From an uncultured delta proteobacterium (GTDB lineage Bacteria > Myxococcota_A > Polyangia > Polyangiales > Polyangiaceae), in contig CAVQUB010000007.1 of the NCBI GenBank assembly GCA_963716725.1, forward strand, positions 128,001 to 192,000: a DNA stretch of 64,000 nt. Reading direction: 5' to 3'. Shown here piece after piece: positions 17,767 through 31,710 of the stretch. A program made the translations under genes and the position numbers. The notes beneath the pieces were generated by a model. The model was not told where the DNA came from. It searched no databases and saw nothing but the letters and a program-made list of their open reading frames with translations. How positions within the stretch are numbered: the stretch's first letter is position 1; every line of letters starts with the position of its first letter.

Positions 17767-18354
17767 ATGAGCTTCATCAACTACATGGCCCGGGAGATCA
17801 ACTGCAAGATCGTCTACTACGGGCCCGGGCTCTGCGGGAAAACGACGAACCTGCAGTACATCTACGAGCGCACGAACCCCGACGCGAAGGGCAAGATGAT
17901 CAGCCTCGCGACGGAGACGGAGCGCACGCTCTTCTTCGACTTCCTGCCGCTCTCGCTCGGTGAGATCCGCGGATTCAAGACGCGCTTCCACCTCTACACG
18001 GTGCCCGGTCAGGTGTTCTACGACGCCAGCCGCAAGCTCATCCTCAAGGGTGTGGACGGCGTCGTCTTCGTGGCCGACTCGCAGATCGAGCGCCTCGAAG
18101 CCAACCAAGAGAGTTTGGACAACCTTCGCACCAACCTGGCGGAGCAGGGCTACTCTCTCGAGAAGCTCCCCTACGTGATCCAGTACAACAAGCGCGATCT
18201 GCCCAACGCCGTCGAAGTCGCCGAGCTTCGCGAGCTTCTGAATCCCACCGGCGTGCCCGACTACGAGGCCAACGCGCGCTCCGGCATGGGCGTGTTCGAC
18301 ACGCTGAAGGCCGTGAGCAAGCTGGTGCTCACCGAGCTGAAGCGCGGCGGCTGA
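17767..18354 (+). CDS. mglA: Ras-like GTPase MglA
   Basis: [38 protein letters not shown]. Confidence 0.98.
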
Positions 18355-20045: not shown

Positions 20046-20207
20046 CGGCTCCGCCTTCCTGTCGCGACTTGACGCGCGTCTTTGGTGCAACGAAGAGCCG
20101 TCGCCTTGGCGGCGTCGGTCCCGATTTGGGCTGCGAGCGGACGGAGCCTCACGGTCTCTGTCTAGCGGAGTCCGCTCCGGTTGCCAAAGGCCAGGCTCCA
20201 GACCGTC

Positions 20208-20350
20208 GCACAACAACCTGGCGTTCACCCGCGAACGCCGCGCATCATCGTAACGGACGGCGTGGCGCTTTTTGAGGCCGCTCGCTCGCCCGAGCCGTCA
20301 TCGCGCCAGAAGTCGCGGCGTTGTTCCTCGGTGTGCCGCGACCGATAGCT
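20208..20350 (-). mobile_element. attC-K (family 1, R''-side arm degenerate)
   Basis: + strand GCACAAC-8nt-GTTCACCCGCGAACGCC; other end decayed (GATAGCT instead of GTTRRRY). Confidence 0.7.
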
Positions 20351-20401
20351 GGCGCGGAAGCTAGCCTCAGCCCTTCGACGCCAACGCTGCGGCCGGCAGT
20401 G

Positions 20402-21250
20402 TCACCGCTCGAGCGGCCGGTACAGTGGGCTGTTGCACCTGGGGTCGAGCCCGAGATCGCGCACCCGGCAACGCCCGCCAACGCAGGCCGCCTGCAACGA
20501 ATCATCAATGCCCTCGGAGAGGCAATCTGGACAGCCGCCCTTGGTCTTGCAACGAGCATTCTTGCGGCGATCAACGGCGATCACCTGGTCTCCGGACGCG
20601 ACGCCGCAGTAGCAGCAGTCCTCGGCCATCAGCGCGCAGTGGGCATCTGCCGAGCAACTGGCCAGCGCTGCCGGCATCACGCGGCGCAAGAGCTTTGGGG
20701 GTCGGACTCTTGGGCACGACGACTTGGTCGTGACGTCGCAACGCGTCTCGACCACGACGCAGCGACGGTTCACACATTCGGCGCTCAAGCCCGACGGAAA
20801 TCCCGAGGCGCACGCCGGGCAGTTGGAGGTGCAGAGCACGTCGTCACCGGAGTCGACGGCCCGCACCTGCTGTGCGCTCAGGGCACCGCAAGGCGGGCAA
20901 CACGCGGCGGGGCGCAGCAGGCATTGATCGTTGCGCGTACAGGAGGCGCGGCGCGCGCTCTGTCCGAGCACGCTGCGCTTGCACTCCGGTCGCGCGGCAT
21001 CGACACCAGCAGCGCGACCGGAATCAGCGTCAGGGACCGAGGTGGAATCGCGCGACGCATCGGGACTGGAAGCGTCGACCGCATCCTGCGCATCCGCCTC
21101 CGGAGCCCAGGTGGCGCTGGCGCCCGGTCCGTCAGCCGCCTCGCCGCCGGCATCCCCAGGCATCAGGGGTTGCGGGGCTTTGGGCGCCCGACAATGCGTG
21201 AGCGCGAGGGCCACGCCGAAGCTCGTCAGGGCGAAGCGAGTGCGACTCAT
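20402..21250 (-). CDS. Cys-rich lipoprotein with two internal repeats (cassette gene)
   Basis: Signal ending LTHC, D/A/S-rich linker, two units of C..C.L....CC..CG..S..QV.AVD..C..CP.C.S..CV..RC. Confidence 0.75.
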   Translation of the reverse strand: MSRTRFALTSFGVALALTHCRAPKAPQPLMPGDAGGEAADGPGASATWAPEADAQDAVDASSPDASRDSTSVPDADSGRAAGVDAARPECKRSVLGQSARRASCTRNDQCLLRPAACCPPCGALSAQQVRAVDSGDDVLCTSNCPACASGFPSGLSAECVNRRCVVVETRCDVTTKSSCPRVRPPKLLRRVMPAALASCSADAHCALMAEDCCYCGVASGDQVIAVDRRKNARCKTKGGCPDCLSEGIDDSLQAACVGGRCRVRDLGLDPRCNSPLYRPLER

Positions 21251-21449
21251 CGGCCTCGCCTCGAGCTTACGCCAAAGCCGCGACTTTGCGGCGCGAGAGC
21301 TGAGGAGGCAGGCTACGCTCTTTCGCGTTCGTGGATGGACAGATCGTGTTGGCGATCACTGGGACGTGTGGCATCCCGCCGATCGCCGCGAGCCCGGGCG
21401 AGTTCAAGTCGTTCAAAGAGCTGGTCGTCCAGAACTGGGTGCGTGGACG

Positions 21450-21560
21450 CTAGGAGGTCTGGATCAAACGATCGTGGAGCCAGAACACCTCCGTCGGCGA
21501 GAGGTGCCTCATGCCAGGGGTCGATAGAGCTCTGCGTTCCTGCGGAGCATCTGTTCGGCG
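21450..21560 (-). pseudogene. Remnant of a Doc(Fic)-type toxin-antitoxin pair
   Basis: AEQMLRRNAELYRPLA-stop overlaps by ATGA (21512-21509) with MRHLSPTEVFWLHDRLIQTS-stop, resembling an antitoxin C-terminus and a Doc N-terminus. Confidence 0.6.
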
Positions 21561-21683
21561 CGCGTCGGGCGCGCCGACCGGTGCGATCCGGGCGGGGGAT
21601 CACGAGCGGAAGCGAGGCCCTACAACCGCTGTGTGGCACGGCGGTCGGGGCGCCGGGCCCCCGCTGTAACGTGGCGGAGTCTG

Positions 21684-21849
21684 TATCAACGATCCGGCGT
21701 TCACCCGCGAACGCCGAGACCAAGAGATACCAGAGAGCGCGGCGCTGCACACGCGGGCGAGTGCCGCAGACAGGGCGAGCGCCCGCGACGCGCGACGGAC
21801 GGAGAAGTCGGCAAGGCCGGCGTTCGTCGGGTGGAACGGCCAGTTATGC
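21684..21849 (-). mobile_element. attC-J (family 1, 166 bp)
   Basis: TATCAAC GATCCGGC GTTCACCCGCGAACGCC ... GGCGTTCGTCGGGTGGAAC GGCCA GTTATGC. Confidence 0.92.
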
Positions 21850-21886
21850 GGCTGTCGGCAGGGCGCAATCGAGCTATGCTTCAGGC

Positions 21887-22129
21887 ATGGCGCAGTCACA
21901 CCCCGACGAGTTGCTTTGGCGGCGCGCGTTGGCGCTTCCACCGGACAAGCGCCTGGCGCTTGCTACCGAGCTGCTGAACAGTGTGGAAGAGCGCCACGAC
22001 GAACGCTGGGAGCGCGAGTGGCTCGCGGAATTGGACCGACGAAGCGCAGCGATCGACCGCGGGGAAGACAAGCTCGAGGACTGGGAGACGGTGAAGGCCA
22101 GGTTGCGGGCCGAGCTGCGCGCAAGGTGA
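21887..22129 (+). CDS. Putative addiction-module antitoxin component (TIGR02574-like)
   Basis: ALALPPDKRLALATELLNS..W..EL.RR..I..G...WE.VK pattern; GTGA overlap with toxin remnant. Confidence 0.85.
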   Translation: MAQSHPDELLWRRALALPPDKRLALATELLNSVEERHDERWEREWLAELDRRSAAIDRGEDKLEDWETVKARLRAELRAR

Positions 22130-22265
22130 AGACGCGGTTTTCCGACGGCTCCACAGGTTCCCGTTCGTCATCCACTTTCGTCTCGGCGAAAACGAGGTCT
22201 TCGTCCTGGCCGTTGCCCACGGGAAGCGCAAACCAGGCTACTGGGTCTCGCGCGACGAACCTTAG
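22126..22265 (+). pseudogene. RelE/ParE family toxin with large internal deletion
   Basis: MKTRFS start, then out-of-frame RRLHRFPFVIHF..VLAVAHGKRKPGYW-stop; only 140 bp against about 300 expected. Confidence 0.8.
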
Positions 22266-22268
22266 GCC

Positions 22269-22423
22269 GAATAGCGATTGAGGCGTTCAGCAGCGAACGC
22301 CAGAAACAACATCACCAGATTCTACCCCGCGCGAGACCCTGGGGAACAGCCGAAGGGGTGCAGGGCGCCACGACATCACCAGTCAGAAAGCCAGCGCTCG
22401 TCTGCTGCAACCTCCTGTTAGGC
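22269..22423 (-). mobile_element. attC-I (family 2, 155 bp, R' core mutated)
   Basis: Ends closely match attC-A (GATTGAGGCGTTCAGCAGCGAACGCC ... GTCTGCTGCAAC..CCTGTTAGGC) but AAC is AGC. Confidence 0.85.
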
Positions 22424-22436
22424 GGTCCGTCGAGAA

Positions 22437-22820
22437 CTAGCGCCACTCGCCCACCATGCCCGCCTTTCGATAGTCCAGTCCGCGCGAGCGTACCGCCAAT
22501 CCATTCGCATACGGCACGGCCCACGCGAACGCCGCGGCCTCGCGCCCTGTACGCAGACGGACCACGCCGTCCGCTCCGAGTTTGCGGGCATGGTCGGCCA
22601 ACTCGTCGAGAAGAGGATCCATCGAGCCGTACGTCCCACGCTTCAGTTTGATTTCACCGAGGTACTCCAACGGAGCGCCCGGCGGCGGCACATCCTTCGT
22701 GAAGAACACGGGACCTGCGTGCGGCGGGTATCGAGACTCGGGCATCTCGGTGCTTGTGCCGCACGCTGCAACGCTGCCGAGGACGGCGGCGAGAACAAGC
22801 GGGGACACACACCTAGCCAT
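22437..22820 (-). CDS. Small lipoprotein, possibly YbjQ-like fold (cassette gene)
   Basis: Lipobox VAAC; L...ARKLGADGVV motif; cassette ends GTTAGGCGG / CCGCCTAAC are perfectly complementary. Confidence 0.8.
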   Translation of the reverse strand: MARCVSPLVLAAVLGSVAACGTSTEMPESRYPPHAGPVFFTKDVPPPGAPLEYLGEIKLKRGTYGSMDPLLDELADHARKLGADGVVRLRTGREAAAFAWAVPYANGLAVRSRGLDYRKAGMVGEWR

Positions 22821-22830
22821 TATGCAATCC

Positions 22831-22996
22831 GCCTAACGAAACGGCGTTCACCCGCGAACGCCGAGACTCAAGATAACAGACGGCACAGCGCTGCACACGC
22901 GGGCGAGTGCCGCATCAGAGTGGTCATCCGCGGCCGCAGAATGGACGGTGAAACTCGGCATGGCCGGCGTTCGGCGGGTGCAACGGCCAGATATGC
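22831..22996 (-). mobile_element. attC-H (family 1, 166 bp, R'' mutated)
   Basis: GCCTAAC..GTTCACCCGCGAACGCC ... GGCGTTCGGCGGGTGCAAC GGCCA GATATGC. Confidence 0.88.
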
Positions 22997-23005
22997 GGTG
23001 CCTGG

Positions 23006-23314
23006 TCACCTGACCCCTTCGAGTCGATCAATCCAGTACAGCGGCGCCTGGTTGCCCAAGAACGCGACGACCACTACCCGGGGATCGGTGATGTAGATGA
23101 TCGACACGGGGAACGTGCGCAGAACGACGTGCCGAACGCCCGGAGGGACGCCCTCGAGCACCCACGGAGCGCCGAGGTGGGGAGATTCGTCGATCAGCCC
23201 GAAGATTTCCTGGGCTTCGTCGACGAAGCGGGAACCGTAGCCGGACCGCTTCTCTTCGTACCAGAGCGCGTTTGCGGCGAGTTCACGCGGGGCAGCGTCC
23301 AGAACCTCAGGCAC
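23006..23314 (-). CDS. RelE/ParE family toxin
   Basis: A..EL..ALWYEEKRSGYGSRF..P..G..R..LRTFPVSIIY; overlaps the antitoxin stop. Confidence 0.85.
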   Translation of the reverse strand: MPEVLDAAPRELAANALWYEEKRSGYGSRFVDEAQEIFGLIDESPHLGAPWVLEGVPPGVRHVVLRTFPVSIIYITDPRVVVVAFLGNQAPLYWIDRLEGVR

Positions 23315-23546
23315 GGCGAGAAGCCACTGCGGCTCGAGCCCTGGACAGCGCGTCTTGCGCAGAAACGGTCTTCGCCGTGCCGTCGCGAAGGCGCTCCACT
23401 CTGCGCGCGATCTCACCAACCCAAGCGTCGTGCGCAGATGGCGCCGGCGTTGGAGTCAAGCTCTCCGCCAGCCGGAGCGCGAGCTGAGCGCGCTCGTCGT
23501 CGGGAAGCTCAAGTGCCTCTGCAAGAATGAGGTCGATGCGAGACAT
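23307..23546 (-). CDS. Putative addiction-module antitoxin component (TIGR02574-like)
   Basis: EALELPDDERAQLALRLAESL..AW..EIARR pattern. Confidence 0.88.
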   Translation of the reverse strand: MSRIDLILAEALELPDDERAQLALRLAESLTPTPAPSAHDAWVGEIARRVERLRDGTAKTVSAQDALSRARAAVASRRA

Positions 23547-23629
23547 CGCGCCAAGCGTACCACGTCGTGTGGGGGGGCGAATCGGGCGTCGACGGTCCAG
23601 TTGAAAGCGCGCGCCATCTCCTCGCGGCC

Positions 23630-23713
23630 GGATAACGTATCGGCGTTCTGCGGCGAATGCCAGACCGAGCGCAGCGAGGGAGGGCAGTCGTCCGCAGCAA
23701 CGCCTTGTTAGCC
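23630..23713 (-). mobile_element. attC-G (short type, 84 bp)
   Basis: GGATAAC..GGCGTTCTGCGGCGA ... TCGTCCGCAGCAACGCCTTGTTAGCC with extrahelical bases; vapC stop lies in R''. Confidence 0.93.
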
Positions 23714-24109
23714 AGCCTCAGCAGACCAGTTCACGACCCTGAGCCCCTTCACCTTGGAGAAGTGCTTGAGGTTGTTGCTTACCAGCGTGAAGTTCAGCGC
23801 GAGCGCATGGGACGCGATCAACGTGTCCAGGGTGCCAATGGGTGTGCCCTTCGTCTCGAGGGCTGCCTGAACGCGACCGAAGGCGGCGGCAGCGGCGTCG
23901 TCAAAGGGCACGACAGCAACCGTGCGACTGAACGCGTCGATGATGCCGTGGAGTTTCCGAGAGCGCCGACGCTCGGCCCCGAATCGCAGTTCCGCCAGGG
24001 TGAGTGCGCTTATGGACACCTCCGACGGCTGATGGTCGGTGAGCCGGGCGGCAGCGGGGCCTTGGCCGCGCAGGATGTAGCTGACGGTGTCGGTATCGAG
24101 GAGAAACAT
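23708..24109 (-). CDS. vapC: PIN-domain toxin
   Basis: MFLLDTDTVS, TLAELRFG, IGTLDTLIASHA, LVSNNLKHF. Confidence 0.93.
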   Translation of the reverse strand: MFLLDTDTVSYILRGQGPAAARLTDHQPSEVSISALTLAELRFGAERRRSRKLHGIIDAFSRTVAVVPFDDAAAAAFGRVQAALETKGTPIGTLDTLIASHALALNFTLVSNNLKHFSKVKGLRVVNWSAEAG

Positions 24110-24113
24110 GGCC

Positions 24114-24353
24114 CTAATCCCCGAATGGATCGCGCGGAGCGGAGGCGTCACGCGCTGGCCGAGGAATCTCGCCGGACCACGCCCCAATGCACGCCAAGAA
24201 ATCCTCCGGCCACGCGTCCACGGGCTCGAGGATGATGCGACGTCCCTCGCGGCGAACGACCACTTCCGCCTGGGTGTCGGGGAAGCGGCAGTCCTTCGGA
24301 AGTCGGACGGCCTGGCTTCCACCATTCCTGAAAAGCTTGGCTCGAGCGCTCAC
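24114..24353 (-). CDS. vapB: AbrB-fold antitoxin
   Basis: AKLFRNGGSQAVRLPK motif, directly upstream of vapC. Confidence 0.93.
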   Translation of the reverse strand: MSARAKLFRNGGSQAVRLPKDCRFPDTQAEVVVRREGRRIILEPVDAWPEDFLACIGAWSGEIPRPARDASAPRDPFGD

Positions 24354-24359
24354 TTGGGA

Positions 24360-24389
24360 AAGTATAGACGCATGTCTATACTTCGTCAA
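24360..24389 (-). promoter_or_regulatory. sigma70-type vapBC promoter with palindromic operator
   Basis: TTGACG-17bp-TATACT; perfect 10-bp arms AAGTATAGAC-N4-GTCTATACTT; GTG start 7 nt after the -10. Confidence 0.88.
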
Positions 24390-24424
24390 GCAGCGCCGGC
24401 GCGTGTGTTTCTGCGGTCTGGCTA

Positions 24425-24459
24425 GCCTACCGACGTTCAGCAGCGACGTCTTGTTAGCC
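24425..24459 (-). mobile_element. attC-F, collapsed 35-bp remnant (family 2)
   Basis: GCCTACCGAC-GTTCAGCAGCGA joined directly to CGTCTTGTTAGCC; the upstream cassette's stop codon lies in its R''. Confidence 0.65.
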
Positions 24460-25038
24460 GGCCGTCGGAGGTCGAGCGGTCGCCAGTATGTCTTGAGCGG
24501 TCATCGAGGATGCTTCGTTCGGGTGCAGGGCGGTAAGGCGCCAGTCCGCCGCGGCCTGGTCGTCGATCAAGATGTCGGGCTTCGCCAAGAAGTCGACGAA
24601 GCAATCCGCAATGCCCAGCTCGACTGCGGATCGGTGGGCGTATGGCGCGCCTCCGACGCTCCAGCAATAGAGAACGGCGTTGGCCGCGTGAAGGTCACGA
24701 ACACGTTGTACGACGCTGCTCATCGGGATGCGCTTCGAACCGAAGGAGCGAACGAGCGTGTCATCGACGTCGACGAAGATGATAGGCGTGTTGGGCGCGG
24801 TGCGGTCGCCAGGCGCCTGCTGCAGACGTTGTCTGGCAGCGTCGAGCATCTCCGGATAGTTGGTGCTGAGGGGCTCCACCAGCGTGGTCTCGAGCTGGCA
24901 CTCGATCTGCCAGAGCACGTGCTGCTCAGCCGAATCGAGCACCCGGACGGCGCCGCCTGAACCGGCTCGGTGGAGCATCTCGAACAGAAGGAGAGCCGCG
25001 TCTGGCTCAAGTTCGAGCTTGTGGCTTGGCGGGCTCAT
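24454..25038 (-). CDS. Two-domain cassette protein: small helical domain + HAD-superfamily hydrolase
   Basis: IIFVDVDDTL (DxD), YCWS, KP, LIDD HAD motifs in the C-terminal part. Confidence 0.8.
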   Translation of the reverse strand: MSPPSHKLELEPDAALLLFEMLHRAGSGGAVRVLDSAEQHVLWQIECQLETTLVEPLSTNYPEMLDAARQRLQQAPGDRTAPNTPIIFVDVDDTLVRSFGSKRIPMSSVVQRVRDLHAANAVLYCWSVGGAPYAHRSAVELGIADCFVDFLAKPDILIDDQAAADWRLTALHPNEASSMTAQDILATARPPTAG

Positions 25039-25047
25039 CTCGGGTCC

Positions 25048-25212
25048 GCCCAACGAGACACACGTTCACCCGCGAACGCGCGAGGTGATCGTAACAGAGC
25101 GCGGGGCATTTTCGAGGCCGGCGCGTGCCGTTGAAAATTGGGCGCCGGCCGCCGCGGGACGGACGGTGAAGTCGGCAAGGCGCGCGTTCGGCGGGTGCAA
25201 CGTCCGTTATGC
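25048..25212 (-). mobile_element. attC-E (family 1, 165 bp)
   Basis: GCCCAAC..GTTCACCCGCGAACGCGCG ... CGCGCGTTCGGCGGGTGCAAC..GTTATGC, with compensatory stem changes. Confidence 0.92.
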
Positions 25213-25560
25213 GGCATCTCGCGGCGTCACCGCCCCGGGCGCCCGCACGAACATCACCAACGCGACCATGCTGGGGACGAAGAAGCCCAGCACTCCGAGT
25301 GCGGTGAAATTCATGGCCTCGGCGATGCCCTCGCCGAGCAGTCGTGCCTTTTGTGACGGATCCACAGCCTCACCACCGACGGCAACAGAAGCCTTGAACG
25401 CGCCGAGCGCAATACCGGTCGCAGGTGCAAGGAAGAGGCACAGGAGGCTGAGAAGAAGGACGCGGCGAAGGGTCTTGCGGGGCTGGGACGACCAGCGCGC
25501 AACTATGGACGCGGCGACGAACCCAAAGCTGGTGAGGCCGATCAGAACCCACCAGTGCAC
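25207..25560 (-). CDS. Small membrane protein resembling a MotA/TolQ/ExbB channel segment (cassette gene)
   Basis: Three hydrophobic segments; AVGGEAVDPSQKARLLGEGIAEAMN; GGGGAG SD before GTG; stop in R''. Confidence 0.7.
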   Translation of the reverse strand: MHWWVLIGLTSFGFVAASIVARWSSQPRKTLRRVLLLSLLCLFLAPATGIALGAFKASVAVGGEAVDPSQKARLLGEGIAEAMNFTALGVLGFFVPSMVALVMFVRAPGAVTPRDAA

Positions 25561-25569
25561 GATCTCCCC

Positions 25570-25735
25570 TGCCAACGATCCGGCGTTCACCCGCGAACGC
25601 CGAGACCAAGAGATACCAGAGTGCGCGGCGCTGCACACGCGGGCGCGTACCGCTTGATGATGGGCACCGGCGCATTCGGCGAGGCGCCAAGGCAAGGCAC
25701 GACCGGCCTTCGGCGGGTTCATCGCCTTGTTAGCC
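25570..25735 (-). mobile_element. attC-D (family 1, 166 bp)
   Basis: TGCCAAC GATCCGGC GTTCACCCGCGAACGCC ... TTCGGCGGGTTCATCGCCTTGTTAGCC. Confidence 0.9.
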
Positions 25736-25754
25736 AGGCCTCTGCCGCAGCGAC

Positions 25755-25783
25755 TTGACATAGTTATCGTTTCGGATAACTAT
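25755..25783 (+). promoter_or_regulatory. TA promoter with palindromic operator
   Basis: TTGACA -35; 9-bp arms ATAGTTATC-N6-GATAACTAT; GTG start at 25790; -10 is weak. Confidence 0.8.
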
Positions 25784-25789
25784 TGGCTT

Positions 25790-26128
25790 GTGAGTTTCGT
25801 CGTCCGCGAGTACGTCGATGAAAGCGGACGCATCCCCTTCCGGGATTGGCTAGGAGAGCTAGACACGTCGGTCCGCGCTCGCGTGCAGGCGAGAGTTTTG
25901 CGATTTGAAACCGGCAACCTCGGCGACCACAAGGAGGTCGGAGAAGGGGTCTGGGAGGCGCGGCTAGACTTCGGTCCCGGGTACCGCTTGTACTTCGGGA
26001 GAAGCGGCCGCGAGGTCGTTCTGCTCTTGCTGGGTGGCGACAAGACGTCTCAAAGGAAGGACATCCGGCGAGCTCGAGAGTTTTGGGCGACGTACGTGAA
26101 GGAACTGAAGCATGGCAAGACGCAGTAG
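25790..26128 (+). CDS. RelE/HigB-like addiction-module killer toxin (antisense to the array)
   Basis: PFRDWL..L..R..GNLGDHK.VGEGVWEARLDFGPGYRLYF..LLLLGGDKTSQ.KDI. Confidence 0.92.
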   Translation: MSFVVREYVDESGRIPFRDWLGELDTSVRARVQARVLRFETGNLGDHKEVGEGVWEARLDFGPGYRLYFGRSGREVVLLLLGGDKTSQRKDIRRAREFWATYVKELKHGKTQ

Positions 26129-26423
26129 AGACTGGAACGAAGGACTGGCCGAAGACCTTCAGGACCCGGAGTTCGCGCGACAGTTCTTGACGGCTGCCGT
26201 GGAAGACGGCGTGCCCCTGAAGATTGCTCTTGCGAAGGTCATTCGTGCCACAGGTGTGAAGGAGTTCGCGGAGAGCGTCGGGATGCTGAGCCCGAATGTG
26301 CTGAGGGCGATTGACCCGAAGCACAACCCAACGCAGGAAACACTCGAACGTCTACTGAAGCCATTCGGGCTTCGAATTGGCCTCGCCCAGATCAAGCCTA
26401 GGACGAAGGGTCGCGCGGCATAG
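26112..26423 (+). CDS. HTH addiction-module antidote protein (HigA-like)
   Basis: LQDPEFA..L..A; HTH; NPT..TL..LLKPFGL; toxin-first gene order. Confidence 0.88.
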   Translation: MARRSRDWNEGLAEDLQDPEFARQFLTAAVEDGVPLKIALAKVIRATGVKEFAESVGMLSPNVLRAIDPKHNPTQETLERLLKPFGLRIGLAQIKPRTKGRAA

Positions 26424-26437
26424 CGTCCGCCTCTCCA

Positions 26438-26600
26438 GCTCAACGATCCGGCGTTCACCCGCGAACGCCGGAGATCATCGTAGCAGACGGCGGGGCGCAT
26501 CAGAGCGGGCGCGTGCCGCAGACAGTGAAGGCGCCCGTGACGCGCGACGTGCGGTGAAACTCGCCTGGCCGGCGTTCGGCGGGCGGAACGTGAGTTATGA
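26438..26600 (-). mobile_element. attC-C (family 1, 163 bp)
   Basis: GCTCAAC GATCCGGC GTTCACCCGCGAACGCCGG ... CCGGCGTTCGGCGGGCGGAAC..GTTATGA. Confidence 0.9.
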
Positions 26601-26624
26601 GGCGGGCTTGCTCACTGGCTTGTC

Positions 26625-26734
26625 ACTCAACCGCGGCGTCGTCCGTGGACGAATCGCCCTCAGAACCGTCGTCGAGCGACGAGTCAAGCGCAGCGTCCGG
26701 AAGCTGTGTGTCCGTAGGGCTGTCGGGCTTGGTA
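26625..26734 (-). pseudogene. 3' fragment of a cassette gene left next to the IS
   Basis: Reads TKPDSPTDTQLPDAALDSSLDDGSEGDSSTDDAAVE-stop just before attC-C. Confidence 0.5.
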
Positions 26735-26765
26735 TGAAGTTCCCCCGCTTCCGTGGACAGCATGA

Positions 26766-27646
26766 TTATGCCGCAGCCTTCACTGTTCGTGAACGCAATT
26801 CGAACTCGATCGGGTTGAGGTAGCCGAGGTGAGAGTGGCGCCGCTCGATGTTGTAGAAGTTCTCGATGTAGTCGCCGATGGAGGTCTCGGCCTGGACGGT
26901 ATCGACGTACAGCTCATGGTCTACGAGTTCGGCGCGCAAGGTGGCGAAGAAGCTCTCCGCGACTGCGTTGTCCCAGCAGTCGCCCTTGCGGCTCATGCTC
27001 GCCACCAGACCGTGCGCGGCCAGCTCCGCTCGGTATGCGTCGCTGGCGTAGGGGCTTCCGCGATCGGAGTGGTGCACGAGGCCTGCGGCAGGGCGACGCG
27101 ACAGAAGGCCCTTTCGGAGCGCTTCGAGAGCCAGCAAGCTGTGTCGTTGTTCTGGCTCGCGGCCCACGCAACAACCCGACGGGAGATAGAGGTCGAGCAT
27201 CACGGCAAGAAACAGCCAGCCCTCGAGAGTCCAGATCGCAGTCACGTCGGTGACCCAGACGCGATCGGGAGCGGCGACTTCGAACTTCCGAGCGAGCACG
27301 TTGGGCGCGATCGGGTTCGAGTGTTTCGAATCGGTCGTCTTCCTGAAGCGGCGCTTCCGCCGCGCTTCGAGGCCGTTTTCCTGCATGAGCCGCTCCACTC
27401 GCTTCTTGCCGACGCGGATCCCCTGGGCTCGCAGTTCCGCATGCACGCGCGGGCTACCGTAGGTGCTTGCGGCTGCGCGTGTGGACCGCAGCGACCTGGA
27501 CCGCGAGCTGTGCGTCGGCGCGTAACACGAGGCGCCTGGGGCCGCTTACGCCATGCATGGAACCCGCTGCAAGAGACCTCGAGAACGCGGCACAGCATCG
27601 TGATTGGGTAGAAGGCCTTCTCGGCGAGGATGAACACGAACTTCAT
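26766..27646 (-). CDS. IS3 transposase OrfB (DDE), with several extra frameshifts
   Basis: WVTDVT, HHSDRGSPY, SMSRKGDCWDNAVAESFF, YN..RRHS.LGY. Confidence 0.9.
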
Positions 27647-27954
27647 GTGCTCTCCTTCGCGAAGAAGGCCGCCGCTTTTTTCAGGATTTCGCGCTCCATT
27701 TGCAGGCGCTTGTTGTCCCGCCGCAGTTGCGCGAGTTCCGCCCGCTCGTCACTCGTGAGCGCACCTGGCGGTCCGTTGCCGGCGTCGATGTCGGCCCGTT
27801 TCACCCACTCGCGCAAGGCCGTCTCGGTCAGGTCCAGGTCCCCGGCCACCTGCGTGACGGTCCGATCTCCGACCTTGCAGAGCCGCACTGCCCCGGCCTT
27901 GAACTCGGGGGTGAATGCTCGTCGCTTCCTACGCTGCTTCTTTCGCTTGTCCAT
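27643..27954 (-). CDS. IS3 transposase OrfA
   Basis: RRAFTPEFKAGAV, HTH, EREILKKAAAFFAKE. Confidence 0.93.
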   Translation of the reverse strand: MDKRKKQRRKRRAFTPEFKAGAVRLCKVGDRTVTQVAGDLDLTETALREWVKRADIDAGNGPPGALTSDERAELAQLRRDNKRLQMEREILKKAAAFFAKEST

Positions 27955-28011
27955 GGATCACTCCAGGCGCATTGTCGCGCGAGTTGGGGTGTCCACGAAA
28001 CCGGGGGAAGA

Positions 28012-28413
28012 TCACTCGGGCGCTCCCCCGTTCGCCAGACGGCGATTCTCCTCATCCAGGTACTCATCGAAGTGCTCAAGAGAGTTGCGCACTTTGGAGT
28101 TGAGGAGCTCATCCATTGGCACGCCGTCGAGAATGGAACGCAAGGTCTTGGCGCGCCGTTGCCGGAAGCTGTGCGAGACAGCGGTTTCCGATTTGCGGCG
28201 CTGCGAGGGTTCGACGAGCTTTCTCAAATTCGCGCTCGCGATTAGCGCCACTGAGATATTCGTATGGAGTTTCAAGGATACTTGGAGCGTGAATCCCGTG
28301 TCGGGAACGGCGGCTTCGTTGAAGACGGCGTCACATGCGTCGACGATCGCATGAGCGAGCCACACGATCTCGTGAAGGCAAACACCGAAGAGTGGCGTGT
28401 TGGTGATGTCCAC
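28012..28413 (-). pseudogene. Cassette-3 gene truncated by IS3; helical protein with HEPN-like R-x4-H motif
   Basis: Its stop codon is the IS terminal TGA; contains VRNSLEHFDEYLD. Confidence 0.7.
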
Positions 28414-28430
28414 GATTCGATCCTGCGTCG

Positions 28431-28595
28431 GTCTAACGCTCTGGCGTTCACCCGCGAACGCCGAGACTCAAGGTAGCAGACGGCACGGCGCTGCACACGC
28501 GGGCGAGTGCCGCATCAGAGTGGTCGTCCGCGGTTGCGGAACGGACGGTGAAGACCGGAAGACCGGCGGTCGGCGGGTGAAACGCCTTGTTATGC
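28431..28595 (-). mobile_element. attC-B (family 1, 165 bp)
   Basis: GTCTAAC..GTTCACCCGCGAACGCC ... CGGCGGGTGAAACGCCTTGTTATGC; closely similar to attC-H. Confidence 0.92.
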
Positions 28596-28904
28596 CGTGA
28601 CAGAATCACGGTGATTCTCGGGTCGGAGACTTTCGGCGCCGCCCGACGCGTCGACGCCGTGGTCTTGGATCTTCTCGACATCTGCGACCGCAACTGTCGC
28701 TGCTGCTTCTGCGGGCACAGTCGGCAAGACATCGGTGGTCTTGGTGCAGCGCTGTCGTTCAACCGCCGGAACTTTTTCCCGCCGCGACGACGCTCGGGGC
28801 TCGCCTCGCGCGACCGGATGCGTCGGAGACTTTCGGCGCTGCCCACGGCAAGACCGTGAAGTCTCGCCAGCGCTGCCCGCTGCATAAGAAATGAACAGCG
28901 GCAT
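28590..28904 (-). CDS. Cassette-2 ORF, function unknown (may be non-coding)
   Basis: ATG lies in R' (GTTATGC) and TAA in R'' (GCATAAC); no recognisable domain. Confidence 0.4.
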   Translation of the reverse strand: MPLFISYAAGSAGETSRSCRGQRRKSPTHPVARGEPRASSRREKVPAVERQRCTKTTDVLPTVPAEAAATVAVADVEKIQDHGVDASGGAESLRPENHRDSVTA

Positions 28905-29084
28905 AACGATTGAGGCGTTCAGCAGCGAACGCCAGGAACAACACTACCCAACAATACCACGCCGACAGGCGCGGGGGTGGCGCCGAGGTTCGCAAGAACC
29001 GAGGCGCTAAGCCCCGCGCGCAGGGCGCCACGACATCAGCCAGTCGGAAAGCCAGCGATCGTCTGCTGCAACGTCCTGTTAGGC
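28901..29084 (-). mobile_element. attC-A (family 2, 184 bp)
   Basis: GCATAAC..GTTCAGCAGCGA ... TCGTCTGCTGCAACGTCCTGTTAGGC; cassette-1 stop lies in R''. Confidence 0.92.
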
Positions 29085-29465
29085 AGTACTCCATGAGTCG
29101 AGATCTGTGACCGGACTGGGAAGTCGGCCTTCGAGCCATTTCGCACAATCAGCCGGCGTGAACTCGGTGTCGGTTGACTCGATGACCCACGAAAGGAACT
29201 CAACGCCGCCGTTCATGTAGGGTGGTGGGGACACCGGCATGAACACTGTGGGAAGGCGCTCGTCAATCGACATGTAGTTGAGCACGTGGCCCAGTTCCTG
29301 GACAACTCGCCACGCGAGGCCGTGTGTCGTGTCGAGGGAGAACTTCACCCACCAGAGGCCACCATCAGATCCACACCCGATGGACCGACGCCCTGCCGGA
29401 AGCTCGATTGCAGGCAGCTGCTCAAGAAAACGCAGGAGCGGCTCGAACGATTCTTCCTCCCCCAA
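29079..29465 (-). CDS. Cassette-1 hypothetical protein (TTG start, or ATG 29495 inside attI)
   Basis: Globular-looking sequence ([30 protein letters not shown]); cassette ends GTTAGGC / GCCTAAC are complementary. Confidence 0.8.
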
Positions 29466-29482
29466 ATGACACCACCAAATCT

Positions 29483-29501
29483 GCCTAACCTCCATTCTAC
29501 C
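29483..29501 (-). mobile_element. Putative attI site
   Basis: GGTAGAA-TGGAG-GTTAGGC: core site, 5-bp spacer and degenerate L box, between the integrase 3' end and the first cassette. Confidence 0.7.
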
Positions 29502-29645
29502 TCGGACGCTTCCGCGAAGCACCGGGGCTCGGCTCGTGCCGTCCCCCATGATCTTCAGCGCTTGCGCCCGACGTGGCGCGTCCGGGGTCGCGTTATGCGG
29601 TTCCGCATAGCCTGATAGGTGGTGCCCGAGGGGGAGGTTGATTGC

Positions 29646-30248
29646 GAGCTGGTCGAGGGGGCTCCGAACGCCATGTCCGACGCGGTTCAGGACGTGCGTG
29701 TAGATCATGGTCGTGGTGACGTCCGCGTGGCCGAGCAGCTCTTGGATGGTACGGATGTCGTACCCGGCTTCGAGCAAGTGGGTGGCGAACGAGTGCCGGA
29801 GCGCGTGGCAGCTGGCCGGCTTGGGGAGGCCCGGGCCGGCTTCCAGTGCGGCCCGCCGTACCGCGCGTTGCAGCACAGTTTGGTGGGTGTGGTGGCGCCG
29901 GCGCTCGCCGGTGACGCGATCCCTGTAGTGACGTTCCGCGGGGAACACCCACTGCCACGCCCACTCACGCGGGGCATCCGGATACTTGCGCGCGAGCGCG
30001 TGAGGCAGCTCGACGCTGCCCACGCCGTTCCGCAAGTCGATGTCGTGCTGGGATCGGACGGTTGCGAGGTGACGCATCAGGGGCTCGAGCATCGAGGCGG
30101 GGAGTGGGGTCACGCGGTCCTTCTTCCCCTTCCCGCAGCGGACCGTGATCTCGTGGCGATGCAGGTCGATGTCCTCGACGCGCAAGCTCGCGCACTCCAT
30201 CAGGCGCAAGCCTCCGCAGGATGTCGGAGACGTGCCCGGCGAAAGCAA
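29646..30248 (-). pseudogene. intI: Integron integrase (tyrosine recombinase) lacking the N-terminal domain
   Basis: [14 protein letters not shown], integron-specific [59 protein letters not shown]. Confidence 0.93.
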
Positions 30249-30288
30249 TCTTCGTCGCCGGCGATCGCCACCCTGCCGCGCCCGCGGC

Positions 30289-31710
30289 TCAGGCGGCCTT
30301 CGCACCGGGAGCGTTGCGGAGCTCACCCAGGATGGCGTCAATGGTCTTCTTGGCGTCGCCGAAGAGCATCTGGGTGTGCTCTTTGAAGAAGAGCGGGTTC
30401 TCGACGCCCGCGTAGCCGCTGGCCATGCTCCGCTTCATCACCACGCAGGCCTTGGCCTTCCACACCTGGAGCACGGGCATGCCGTAGATGGGGCTCGACC
30501 GATCGTCGAGTGCGCCCGGGTTCACGATGTCGTTGGCTCCGATCACCAGCACCGCGTCGGTCTCGGGGAAGTCCTCGTTGATCTCGTCCATCTCGAGCAC
30601 GATGTCGTACGGGACCTTCGCTTCGGCCAAGAGCACGTTCATGTGGCCGGGAAGTCGGCCCGCGACCGGGTGAATCGCGAAGCGCACCTTCACGCCGCGC
30701 TCGCGCAAGAGGGCCGCCACCTCCCACAGCGGGTACTGCGCTTGGGCAACGGCCATGCCGTAGCCCGGCACGACCACCACGCTCTTGGCGTTGGCGAGCA
30801 GCGCTGCCGTGTCGGTCGCGGTGACGCTGACCACCTCGCCCTGGGGTTCGCCGGAGGTCTTGGCCGGGGCTGCGCCTTCTTCGGCGCCAAAGCCGCCGAA
30901 GATCACGCTGACGATGGATCGGTTCATCGCCTTGCACATGATGTAGCTGAGAATGGCGCCGCTCGATCCGACCAGCGCGCCAGTGATGATCAAGAGATCG
31001 TTGGCGAGCATGAAGCCCGCCGCGGCAGCCGCCCAGCCAGAGTAACTGTTGAGCATCGACACGACCACCGGCATGTCGGCGCCGCCGATGGCCATCACCA
31101 GGTGCACGCCGAGCACTCCGGCGATCGCCGTCATGATCAGCAGCGGCTGCAGGCCTCCGTGCTCCGGCGCCGAAAGGAACTGCGCTCCGAGCCAGAGGCA
31201 AGCCGCGACCATGGTGAGGTTCGCGAGGTGGCGTCCTGGGAGCAGCAGCGGCTTGCTGCGGATCAGACCTTGGAGCTTTCCGTAGGCGACGATTGAGCCG
31301 GTGAAGGTGATGGCGCCGATGAACACGCCGATGAACACCTCGATCTCGTGGATCACCGCCTCGGCGCCGCTCAGATCGGAGGGAGGCGCCAGGAAACTCG
31401 CGATGCCCACCAGCACCGCGGCCGCGCCCACGAAGCTGTGCAAGATGGCGACGAGCTGGGGCATGTTGGTCATGGCCACGCGCGCGGCGAGAAGCGCGCC
31501 GATCACTGCGCCGACGCCGATGGCGCCCGCCAAGACGGGGTAGCCGGTGACCGAGGGGTGCGCGGCGGTGGCGACCAGCGCGATGATCATGCCGACGATG
31601 CCGAAGACGTTGCCGCGTCCTGCGGATTGCTGCTTCGACAGCCCGCCGAGGCTCGAGATGAAGAGCACGCCGGCGACGAGGTACGCGATGTTCTGAAGGC
31701 TCTGCGGCAT
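30289..31710 (-). CDS. pntB: NAD(P) transhydrogenase beta subunit
   Basis: [50 protein letters not shown]. Confidence 0.98.

Follow-up and report, generated by a model that had tools for sequence, protein, structure and literature searches.

A long reading frame across attI in a reverse chromosomal integron is probably a by-product of integrase gene decay

The integron described here raises the question of whether an integrase frame that crosses its own attI site is a working arrangement or an accident. In the window, the whole stretch of 64,000 nucleotides that was analysed, the ORF list and translation contain an open frame of 420 codons on the minus strand (30341..29079) that leaves an integron-integrase domain, crosses the heptamer GTTAGGC and closes only at the TAA with which the first cassette gene ends. 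A preliminary description of this DNA had stated that the intI frame passes attI and ends at the cassette-1 TAA inside attC, and this ORF bears it out. From that observation it was proposed that attI lies inside the integrase coding sequence, so that each integration would rewrite the C-terminus of IntI or couple its translation to the newest cassette. Such self-editing, if true, would mean a recombinase that rewrites itself at every capture; the DNA does not show that. We estimate at about 90% the probability that the long ORF is instead a by-product of decay in an intI remnant.

In the reading that we prefer, the locus is a co-oriented ("reverse") sedentary chromosomal integron downstream of pntAB whose platform has decayed. 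One lesion removed the first ~147 codons of intI and everything upstream of them, up to 70 nt after pntB. A second, the loss of 1 nt ~40 nt ahead of the TAG that normally ends the gene, shifted the frame, which misses the TAG and runs on to the TAA of the cassette gene. The features of the integrase side, from upstream to downstream, are:

30289..31710, minus strand: pntB-like gene (transhydrogenase beta subunit), an ORF named by eye from its translation, directly upstream of the remnant
30217..30218, no strand: truncation joint, where homology to intact intI starts, 70 nt after the pntB stop (30289)
29646..30217, minus strand: intI remnant, catalytic-domain part (TIGR02249, 279.1 bits; PF00589, E 3.5e-30)
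29500..29645, minus strand: former intI C-terminal extension with the 1-nt deletion (~29537/29538), from the paralogue alignment; overlaps the upstream part of attI
29494..29500, minus strand: GTAGAAT, candidate L box of attI, invariant in 7/7 sequences; contains the normal intI stop TAG (29499-29497), out of frame in the window
29483..29489, minus strand: GTTAGGC, R box of attI, with the crossover between 29489 and 29488

Residues 43-232 of the long ORF cover positions 128-315 of the 315-position TIGR02249 model and score 279.1 bits (cut-off 265), and Phage_integrase (Pfam PF00589) also matches the remnant (E 3.5e-30). The remnant passes the family cut-off but is not full-length: model positions 1-127 are missing, and with them the N-terminal domain, as the preliminary description had cautioned in calling this intI truncated. 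A full-length paralogue with an ORF of 385 aa is present on another contig of the same genome (443.8 bits, TIGR02249 positions 1-315). Relative to this protein the remnant comprises residues 148-377, at 91% identity; the ~147 codons before them are deleted together with the region upstream, and contigs of the intact type diverge from the window at 30217. In tblastn searches pntB was found upstream of intact intI in three same-genus loci (L010, L011 and L013, in G001, G004 and G005) at 91-93% identity. The window therefore contains the syntenic, ancestral integron site, with its integrase cut down. In another genome of the genus, G003, several further intI-like copies (loci L021-L025) contain in-frame TGA codons or split frames; going by these copies, integrase decay seems to be common in the genus.

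At the other end of the domain, the frame passes through VRSPLDQL (L at 29648-29646) and continues without a stop for 55 codons to GRMEVRQ. It then traverses GTTAGGC (29489-29483) and closes at a TAA (29081-29079), 188 codons past SPLDQL, in the GCCTAAC core of the first attC. The intact paralogue has the same tail as the window copy and ends in KRPR-stop, the stop being the TAG of GTAGAAT. From the catalytic domain as far as GTTAGGC the two copies hardly differ in DNA, and directly beyond it they are unrelated; their alignment contains a single 1-nt gap, in the window copy, at ~29537. Because this base is missing, the window frame is shifted past the TAG. For comparison we used the own paralogue and five same-genus genomes, five of these six copies being full-length and that of G003 split by a frameshift further upstream. 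The TAG of GTAGAAT is the intI stop in all six (own paralogue, G001, G002, G003, G004 and G005). The distance from the catalytic Tyr codon to this TAG takes five different values among the six relatives, all of them multiples of 3:

Own paralogue (C8): 204 nt, divisible by 3
G001: 207 nt, divisible by 3
G005: 207 nt, divisible by 3
G002: 219 nt, divisible by 3
G004: 210 nt, divisible by 3
G003: 222 nt, divisible by 3
Window copy: 203 nt, not divisible by 3

As the preliminary description had recommended, the stop was thus located relative to attI in full-length orthologues, and it is the TAG within GTAGAAT, 8 nt upstream of the crossover. Since the stop precedes the crossover in intact relatives, no cassette can alter the integrase protein. 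With 0/6 relatives reading over the crossover, the proposal of an IntI C-terminus rewritten at each integration, or of translation coupled to the newest cassette, has to be abandoned. The narrower claim that attI lies within the integrase coding sequence survives in part: intI of this lineage does reach into attI, but the intact frames end short of the crossover. Intact orthologues with a stop soon after SPLD and upstream of attI had been named in advance as the outcome that would count against the proposal. What we found is a modified form of it, a stop upstream of the crossover but ~50 codons after SPLD.

The pattern GTAGAAT-N4-GTTA..C is common to 7/7 sequences, so that 8 nt separate the TAG from the G|TT cut. 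The similarity between the paralogous platforms ends right after GTTAGGC, which fixes the boundary between attI and cassette and confirms the earlier assignment of this heptamer as the crossover core. An attI with a G|TT crossover therefore lies beside intI, and a metagenome contig described below joins the same site to another cassette. From its position and its 4-nt spacing to the R box, we infer that GTAGAAT is the L box; an excerpt of PMC12614218 places attI boxes 4-5 bp apart. A conserved stretch containing GCATAAC lies ~100 nt upstream and may be an additional IntI binding site. The intI stop so close to the crossover gives a precise definition of attI for a group in which attI sites are poorly known. 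TAGAAT was also considered as the -10 box of a cassette promoter, which a simple scan of 29050-30350 (a scan that may not suit this organism) did not support.

The cassette side of the locus comprises the following features:

28907..29488, minus strand: cassette 1, consisting of gene and attC; its limits are the attI crossover and the GTTATGC core (28907-28901)
29079..29465, minus strand: cassette-1 gene, 128 aa, TTG start at 29465, TAA stop inside the attC core; conserved protein
28901..29084, minus strand: attC of cassette 1, a 184-nt imperfect palindrome and member of a repeat family
20200..28597, minus strand: remaining array, eight more attC, with anchors at 20223, 21699, 22285, 22846, 25064, 25585, 26453 and 28446

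Between 20200 and 29084 there are nine attC-like repeats of ~165-185 nt, which form an array; eight of the nine anchors were aligned, the copy at 20223 being left out. The first attC folds as DNA with -44.7 kcal/mol (z -3.64), and none of 200 shuffled sequences folded as well. The single-base bulges of its hairpin lie on the 3' arm of the plus strand, as expected if plus is the bottom strand; this is where extrahelical bases sit on the attC bottom strand. The side of these bulges, together with the minus-strand cassette gene, therefore shows that the array is co-oriented with intI, as had been claimed. With intI on the strand of the attC top strand and of the cassette genes, here and in the same-genus loci, the arrangement is that of a reverse, or inverted, integron. 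Rfam models at gathering scores, which may or may not include one for attC, gave no match in the whole window. Two minus-strand ORFs that by eye resemble orfA/orfB of the IS3 family (~26766-27954) split the array; the attC copies on either side are those at 26437-26600 and 28430-28594. Also by eye, the array contains toxin-antitoxin-like ORF pairs (RelE/HigA-like, VapBC-like and ParE-like) at 25727-26423 (plus strand), 23708-24389 (minus strand) and 23006-23546 (minus strand), one of them opposite in strand to the cassettes. Further along the window, an ORF at 17767-18354 (plus strand) resembles, by eye, the small GTPase MglA and may hint at a myxobacterial-type host.

The gene into which the long frame runs has a history of its own. 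Its TTG lies 23 nt inside the cassette, and 11/11 aligned homologues begin at the column of this codon. Of 2879 candidates, 2871 proved related to the protein at E<=0.001, most of them 127-135 aa long and 70-86% identical, with source names from several phyla. The cassette-1 gene represents a free-standing family, with products of 127-133 aa and its own start, independent of the integrase. Its stop lies in the GCCTAAC core of the first attC; an excerpt of PMC4909258 reports that the stop codons of cassette ORFs mostly lie within that attC binding site. Pfam searches with the protein and with the neighboring ORFs returned nothing significant. The AlphaFold2 model (pLDDT 81, pTM 0.77) had no Foldseek match in the PDB at E<=0.001, the best being 0.16, and therefore provides no functional lead. 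The first cassette thus carries a very widespread and strongly conserved 128-aa protein without a family assignment. In the intact platform on the other contig of this genome, the first cassette gene (L001, 804-1340, minus strand) encodes a protein whose N-terminus, MNTLTKLLSAVPVPFAMMLSCGS, is lipoprotein-like by eye; no Pfam family was found for it.

The frame stays open as far as the TAA because GC-rich DNA has few stops and because the cassette gene (TTG 29465) happens to be in phase. The fusion needs only a frameshift and a phase coincidence of 1 in 3.

A fusion made by accident could still have acquired a use. The truncated integrase-cassette-1 product might be made from pntAB read-through and act, for example, as a site-binding regulator. 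Several observations are consistent with such co-option: (i) Between the remnant and the intact paralogue, dN/dS is 0.30 over 188 codons when a 2-codon indel is taken into account (ignoring the indel gave a meaningless 1.06). Because this value is not ~1, either most of the divergence predates the decay or some constraint persists. (ii) The simple scan of 29050-30350, which may not suit this organism, returned no promoter-like and no terminator-like sites. The lack of a terminator-like site between pntB and the array means that the remnant could be transcribed by read-through. (iii) GLR..E, HALRH and YTHV, which we take to be the catalytic boxes, are still visible. (iv) The same allele occurs in several habitats. 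However, the remnant lacks a start codon with recognizable context as well as the N-terminal domain, a fusion in phase with the cassette gene is expected by chance in one case out of three, and identical alleles over runs may simply represent the same strain. Although a protein initiated at an internal Met of the remnant is conceivable, we consider co-option very improbable. We favor decay without a new function, and infer that the remnant is inactive.

A different objection is that the frameshift itself is a sequencing or assembly error, the TAG being the true stop of the window copy. The draft assembly (35 contigs, 84% completeness) could have been confused by the 96%-similar paralogue; the preliminary description likewise cautioned that the window has indel errors. 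We compared the locus with Logan contigs from four runs of four studies, which are contigs rather than raw reads and of which one run may be the source sample of the assembly. Three contigs cover both the deletion and the junction of attI with cassette 1: record 2 of run X1 (29272-29815) with 1 substitution and no gap, and record 18 of run X6 (29359-29782) and record 10 of run X2 (29463-29587), both identical to the window. Coming from three studies, although one run may be the source, these contigs span at least 29463-29587 without gaps and with 0-1 differences. The truncation joint is bridged without differences by record 15 of X2 (29938-30315) and record 6 of X1 (30183-30350), and run X7 yielded only short pieces in this part of the locus. 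A paralogue-type contig with one extra base behind 29537 coexists with the window type in X2, where both forms were resolved. That contigs from three studies repeat the deletion and both junctions argues against an assembly error. On this evidence such an error is unlikely to lie behind the frameshift, the objection as a whole is very improbable, and the caution about indels was misplaced for this region.

An ATG lies two bases after the TAG (TAG-AATG). It is present in 6/7 sequences and replaced by ATA in G003. Its phase relative to the first cassette gene was judged in three loci, the others being too short or without a clear cassette gene: the window and the own paralogue have the two in phase, G004 does not. 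An integrase frame meant to cross attI has in its favor the open frame of the window and this in-phase ATG in two loci. Against it, all six relatives end before the crossover, and in the sole copy that crosses, 127 of the 315 model positions are missing and 1 nt is deleted. The ATG, moreover, does not share the phase of the cassette gene in G004 and is absent from G003, and the cassette gene has its own start. On these grounds self-editing is hardly credible.

The intact paralogue has the same GTAGAAT-N4-GTTAGGC site, and the array may now be serviced in trans by its integrase. In record 11 of run X2, a paralogue-type attI (29486-29587, with 8 substitutions and the extra base) is joined to cassette 2 of the window (28879-28903). 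The join falls exactly at the TAAC/GTTA core, which is the product expected from integrase-mediated exchange. This contig suggests either cassette movement between the platforms or strains with different first cassettes. One broken and one intact platform thus share a core site in a single genome, with possible cassette movement between them.

The comparison with relatives also leaves one unusual feature, the normal position of the stop. In the same genus, intI extends ~50 codons past its usual end (SPLDxL) and stops inside attI, with tails of 68-74 codons that always end in the heptamer. We surveyed distant intI at 160 loci, of which 154 had the Tyr-box motif and 151 complete tails; 131 of the 151 tails end 17-34 codons after the Tyr box, and the other 20 are 44-81 codons long. 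The codon-position GC of the ~50-codon extension is flat (e.g., 0.73/0.61/0.71) compared with 0.71/0.47/0.85 in the core, and the other two frames of the tail region contain 0-1 stops. Neither its openness nor its composition, the latter if anything a point against translation, is therefore a sign of a coding tail. What points to translation, and would be the only evidence for it, is the phase kept through five lengths together with the synonymous changes noted by eye in the QLS(G/S)Y motif. Retention of a rare TTA codon there could equally reflect a constraint at the level of DNA, such as integrase binding sites. Tentatively, we consider it possible, if doubtful, that the overlap is selected. 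IntI bound at attI would then, for example, gate the 3' end of its own gene as well as read-through transcription or translation into the first cassette; alternatively, a fast-evolving proline-rich tail would modulate attI recombination. If so, the window copy would be a natural mutant in which that stop is bypassed.

Sites resembling this one occur near other integrases. At L021, on another contig of G003, intI is of a more distant type whose frame ends directly behind SPLDAL and is followed by GTATAAT and then GTTATTC ~130-150 nt downstream (by eye). The ~150-nt platform may thus be non-coding in the L021 type and absorbed into the ORF in the clade of the window. Three distant loci with long tails (L083, L159 and L173) have GTTAGGC, GTTAGCC or GTTATCC 17-25 nt after the stop; near-overlap of intI with a putative attI may occur more widely among GC-rich reverse integrons. 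Among the literature listings and excerpts covered, we met with no account of an overlap between intI and attI; the supplementary figures of PMC4889954, which list inverted integrases, might bear on novelty.

How, then, does the locus compare with known systems? Reverse chromosomal integrons, for example that of Treponema denticola, were reportedly described by Coleman in 2004 and Boucher in 2007. Like them, the present integron is chromosomal, with an array of many cassettes that includes toxin-antitoxin-like genes. The reverse or inverted integrase arrangement as such is already known, as excerpts of PMC3607928, PMC4909258, PMC4889954 and bioRxiv 10.1101/427781 attest. In Treponema-type integrons from saliva, one table row in an excerpt of PMC4909258 gives 271 bp from intI to the first cassette ORF, and Pc and attI are contained in the amplicons. 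Here and in five same-genus genomes, in contrast, the intI frame itself continues for ~50 codons to the heptamer beside the crossover. The locus also resembles CALIN elements with an intI pseudogene, which an excerpt of Cury et al. 2016 (PMC4889954) counts near 15/279 elements, in that an attC cluster lies beside a recognizable broken intI while a second, intact intI is found elsewhere in the genome. It differs from them in that attI is intact, with a core identical to that of the intact paralogue, and in that the frame of the pseudogene is fused to a cassette gene. A further parallel is ORF-11 of attI1, as presented in an excerpt of PMC2761259: in both cases a frame overlaps attI, and an ATG before the crossover could pass ribosomes to the cassette. 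ORF-11, however, is a short ORF of its own in an integron of the divergent type, and its effect has been tested (PMC2761259), whereas here the overlapping frame is the integrase itself; the ATG of the window clade is absent in 1/7 sequences and in phase in 2/3 judged cases. Set against these systems, the feature in the window is ordinary gene decay, and the overlap of intI with attI in its lineage would be a modest new variant of reverse integrons.
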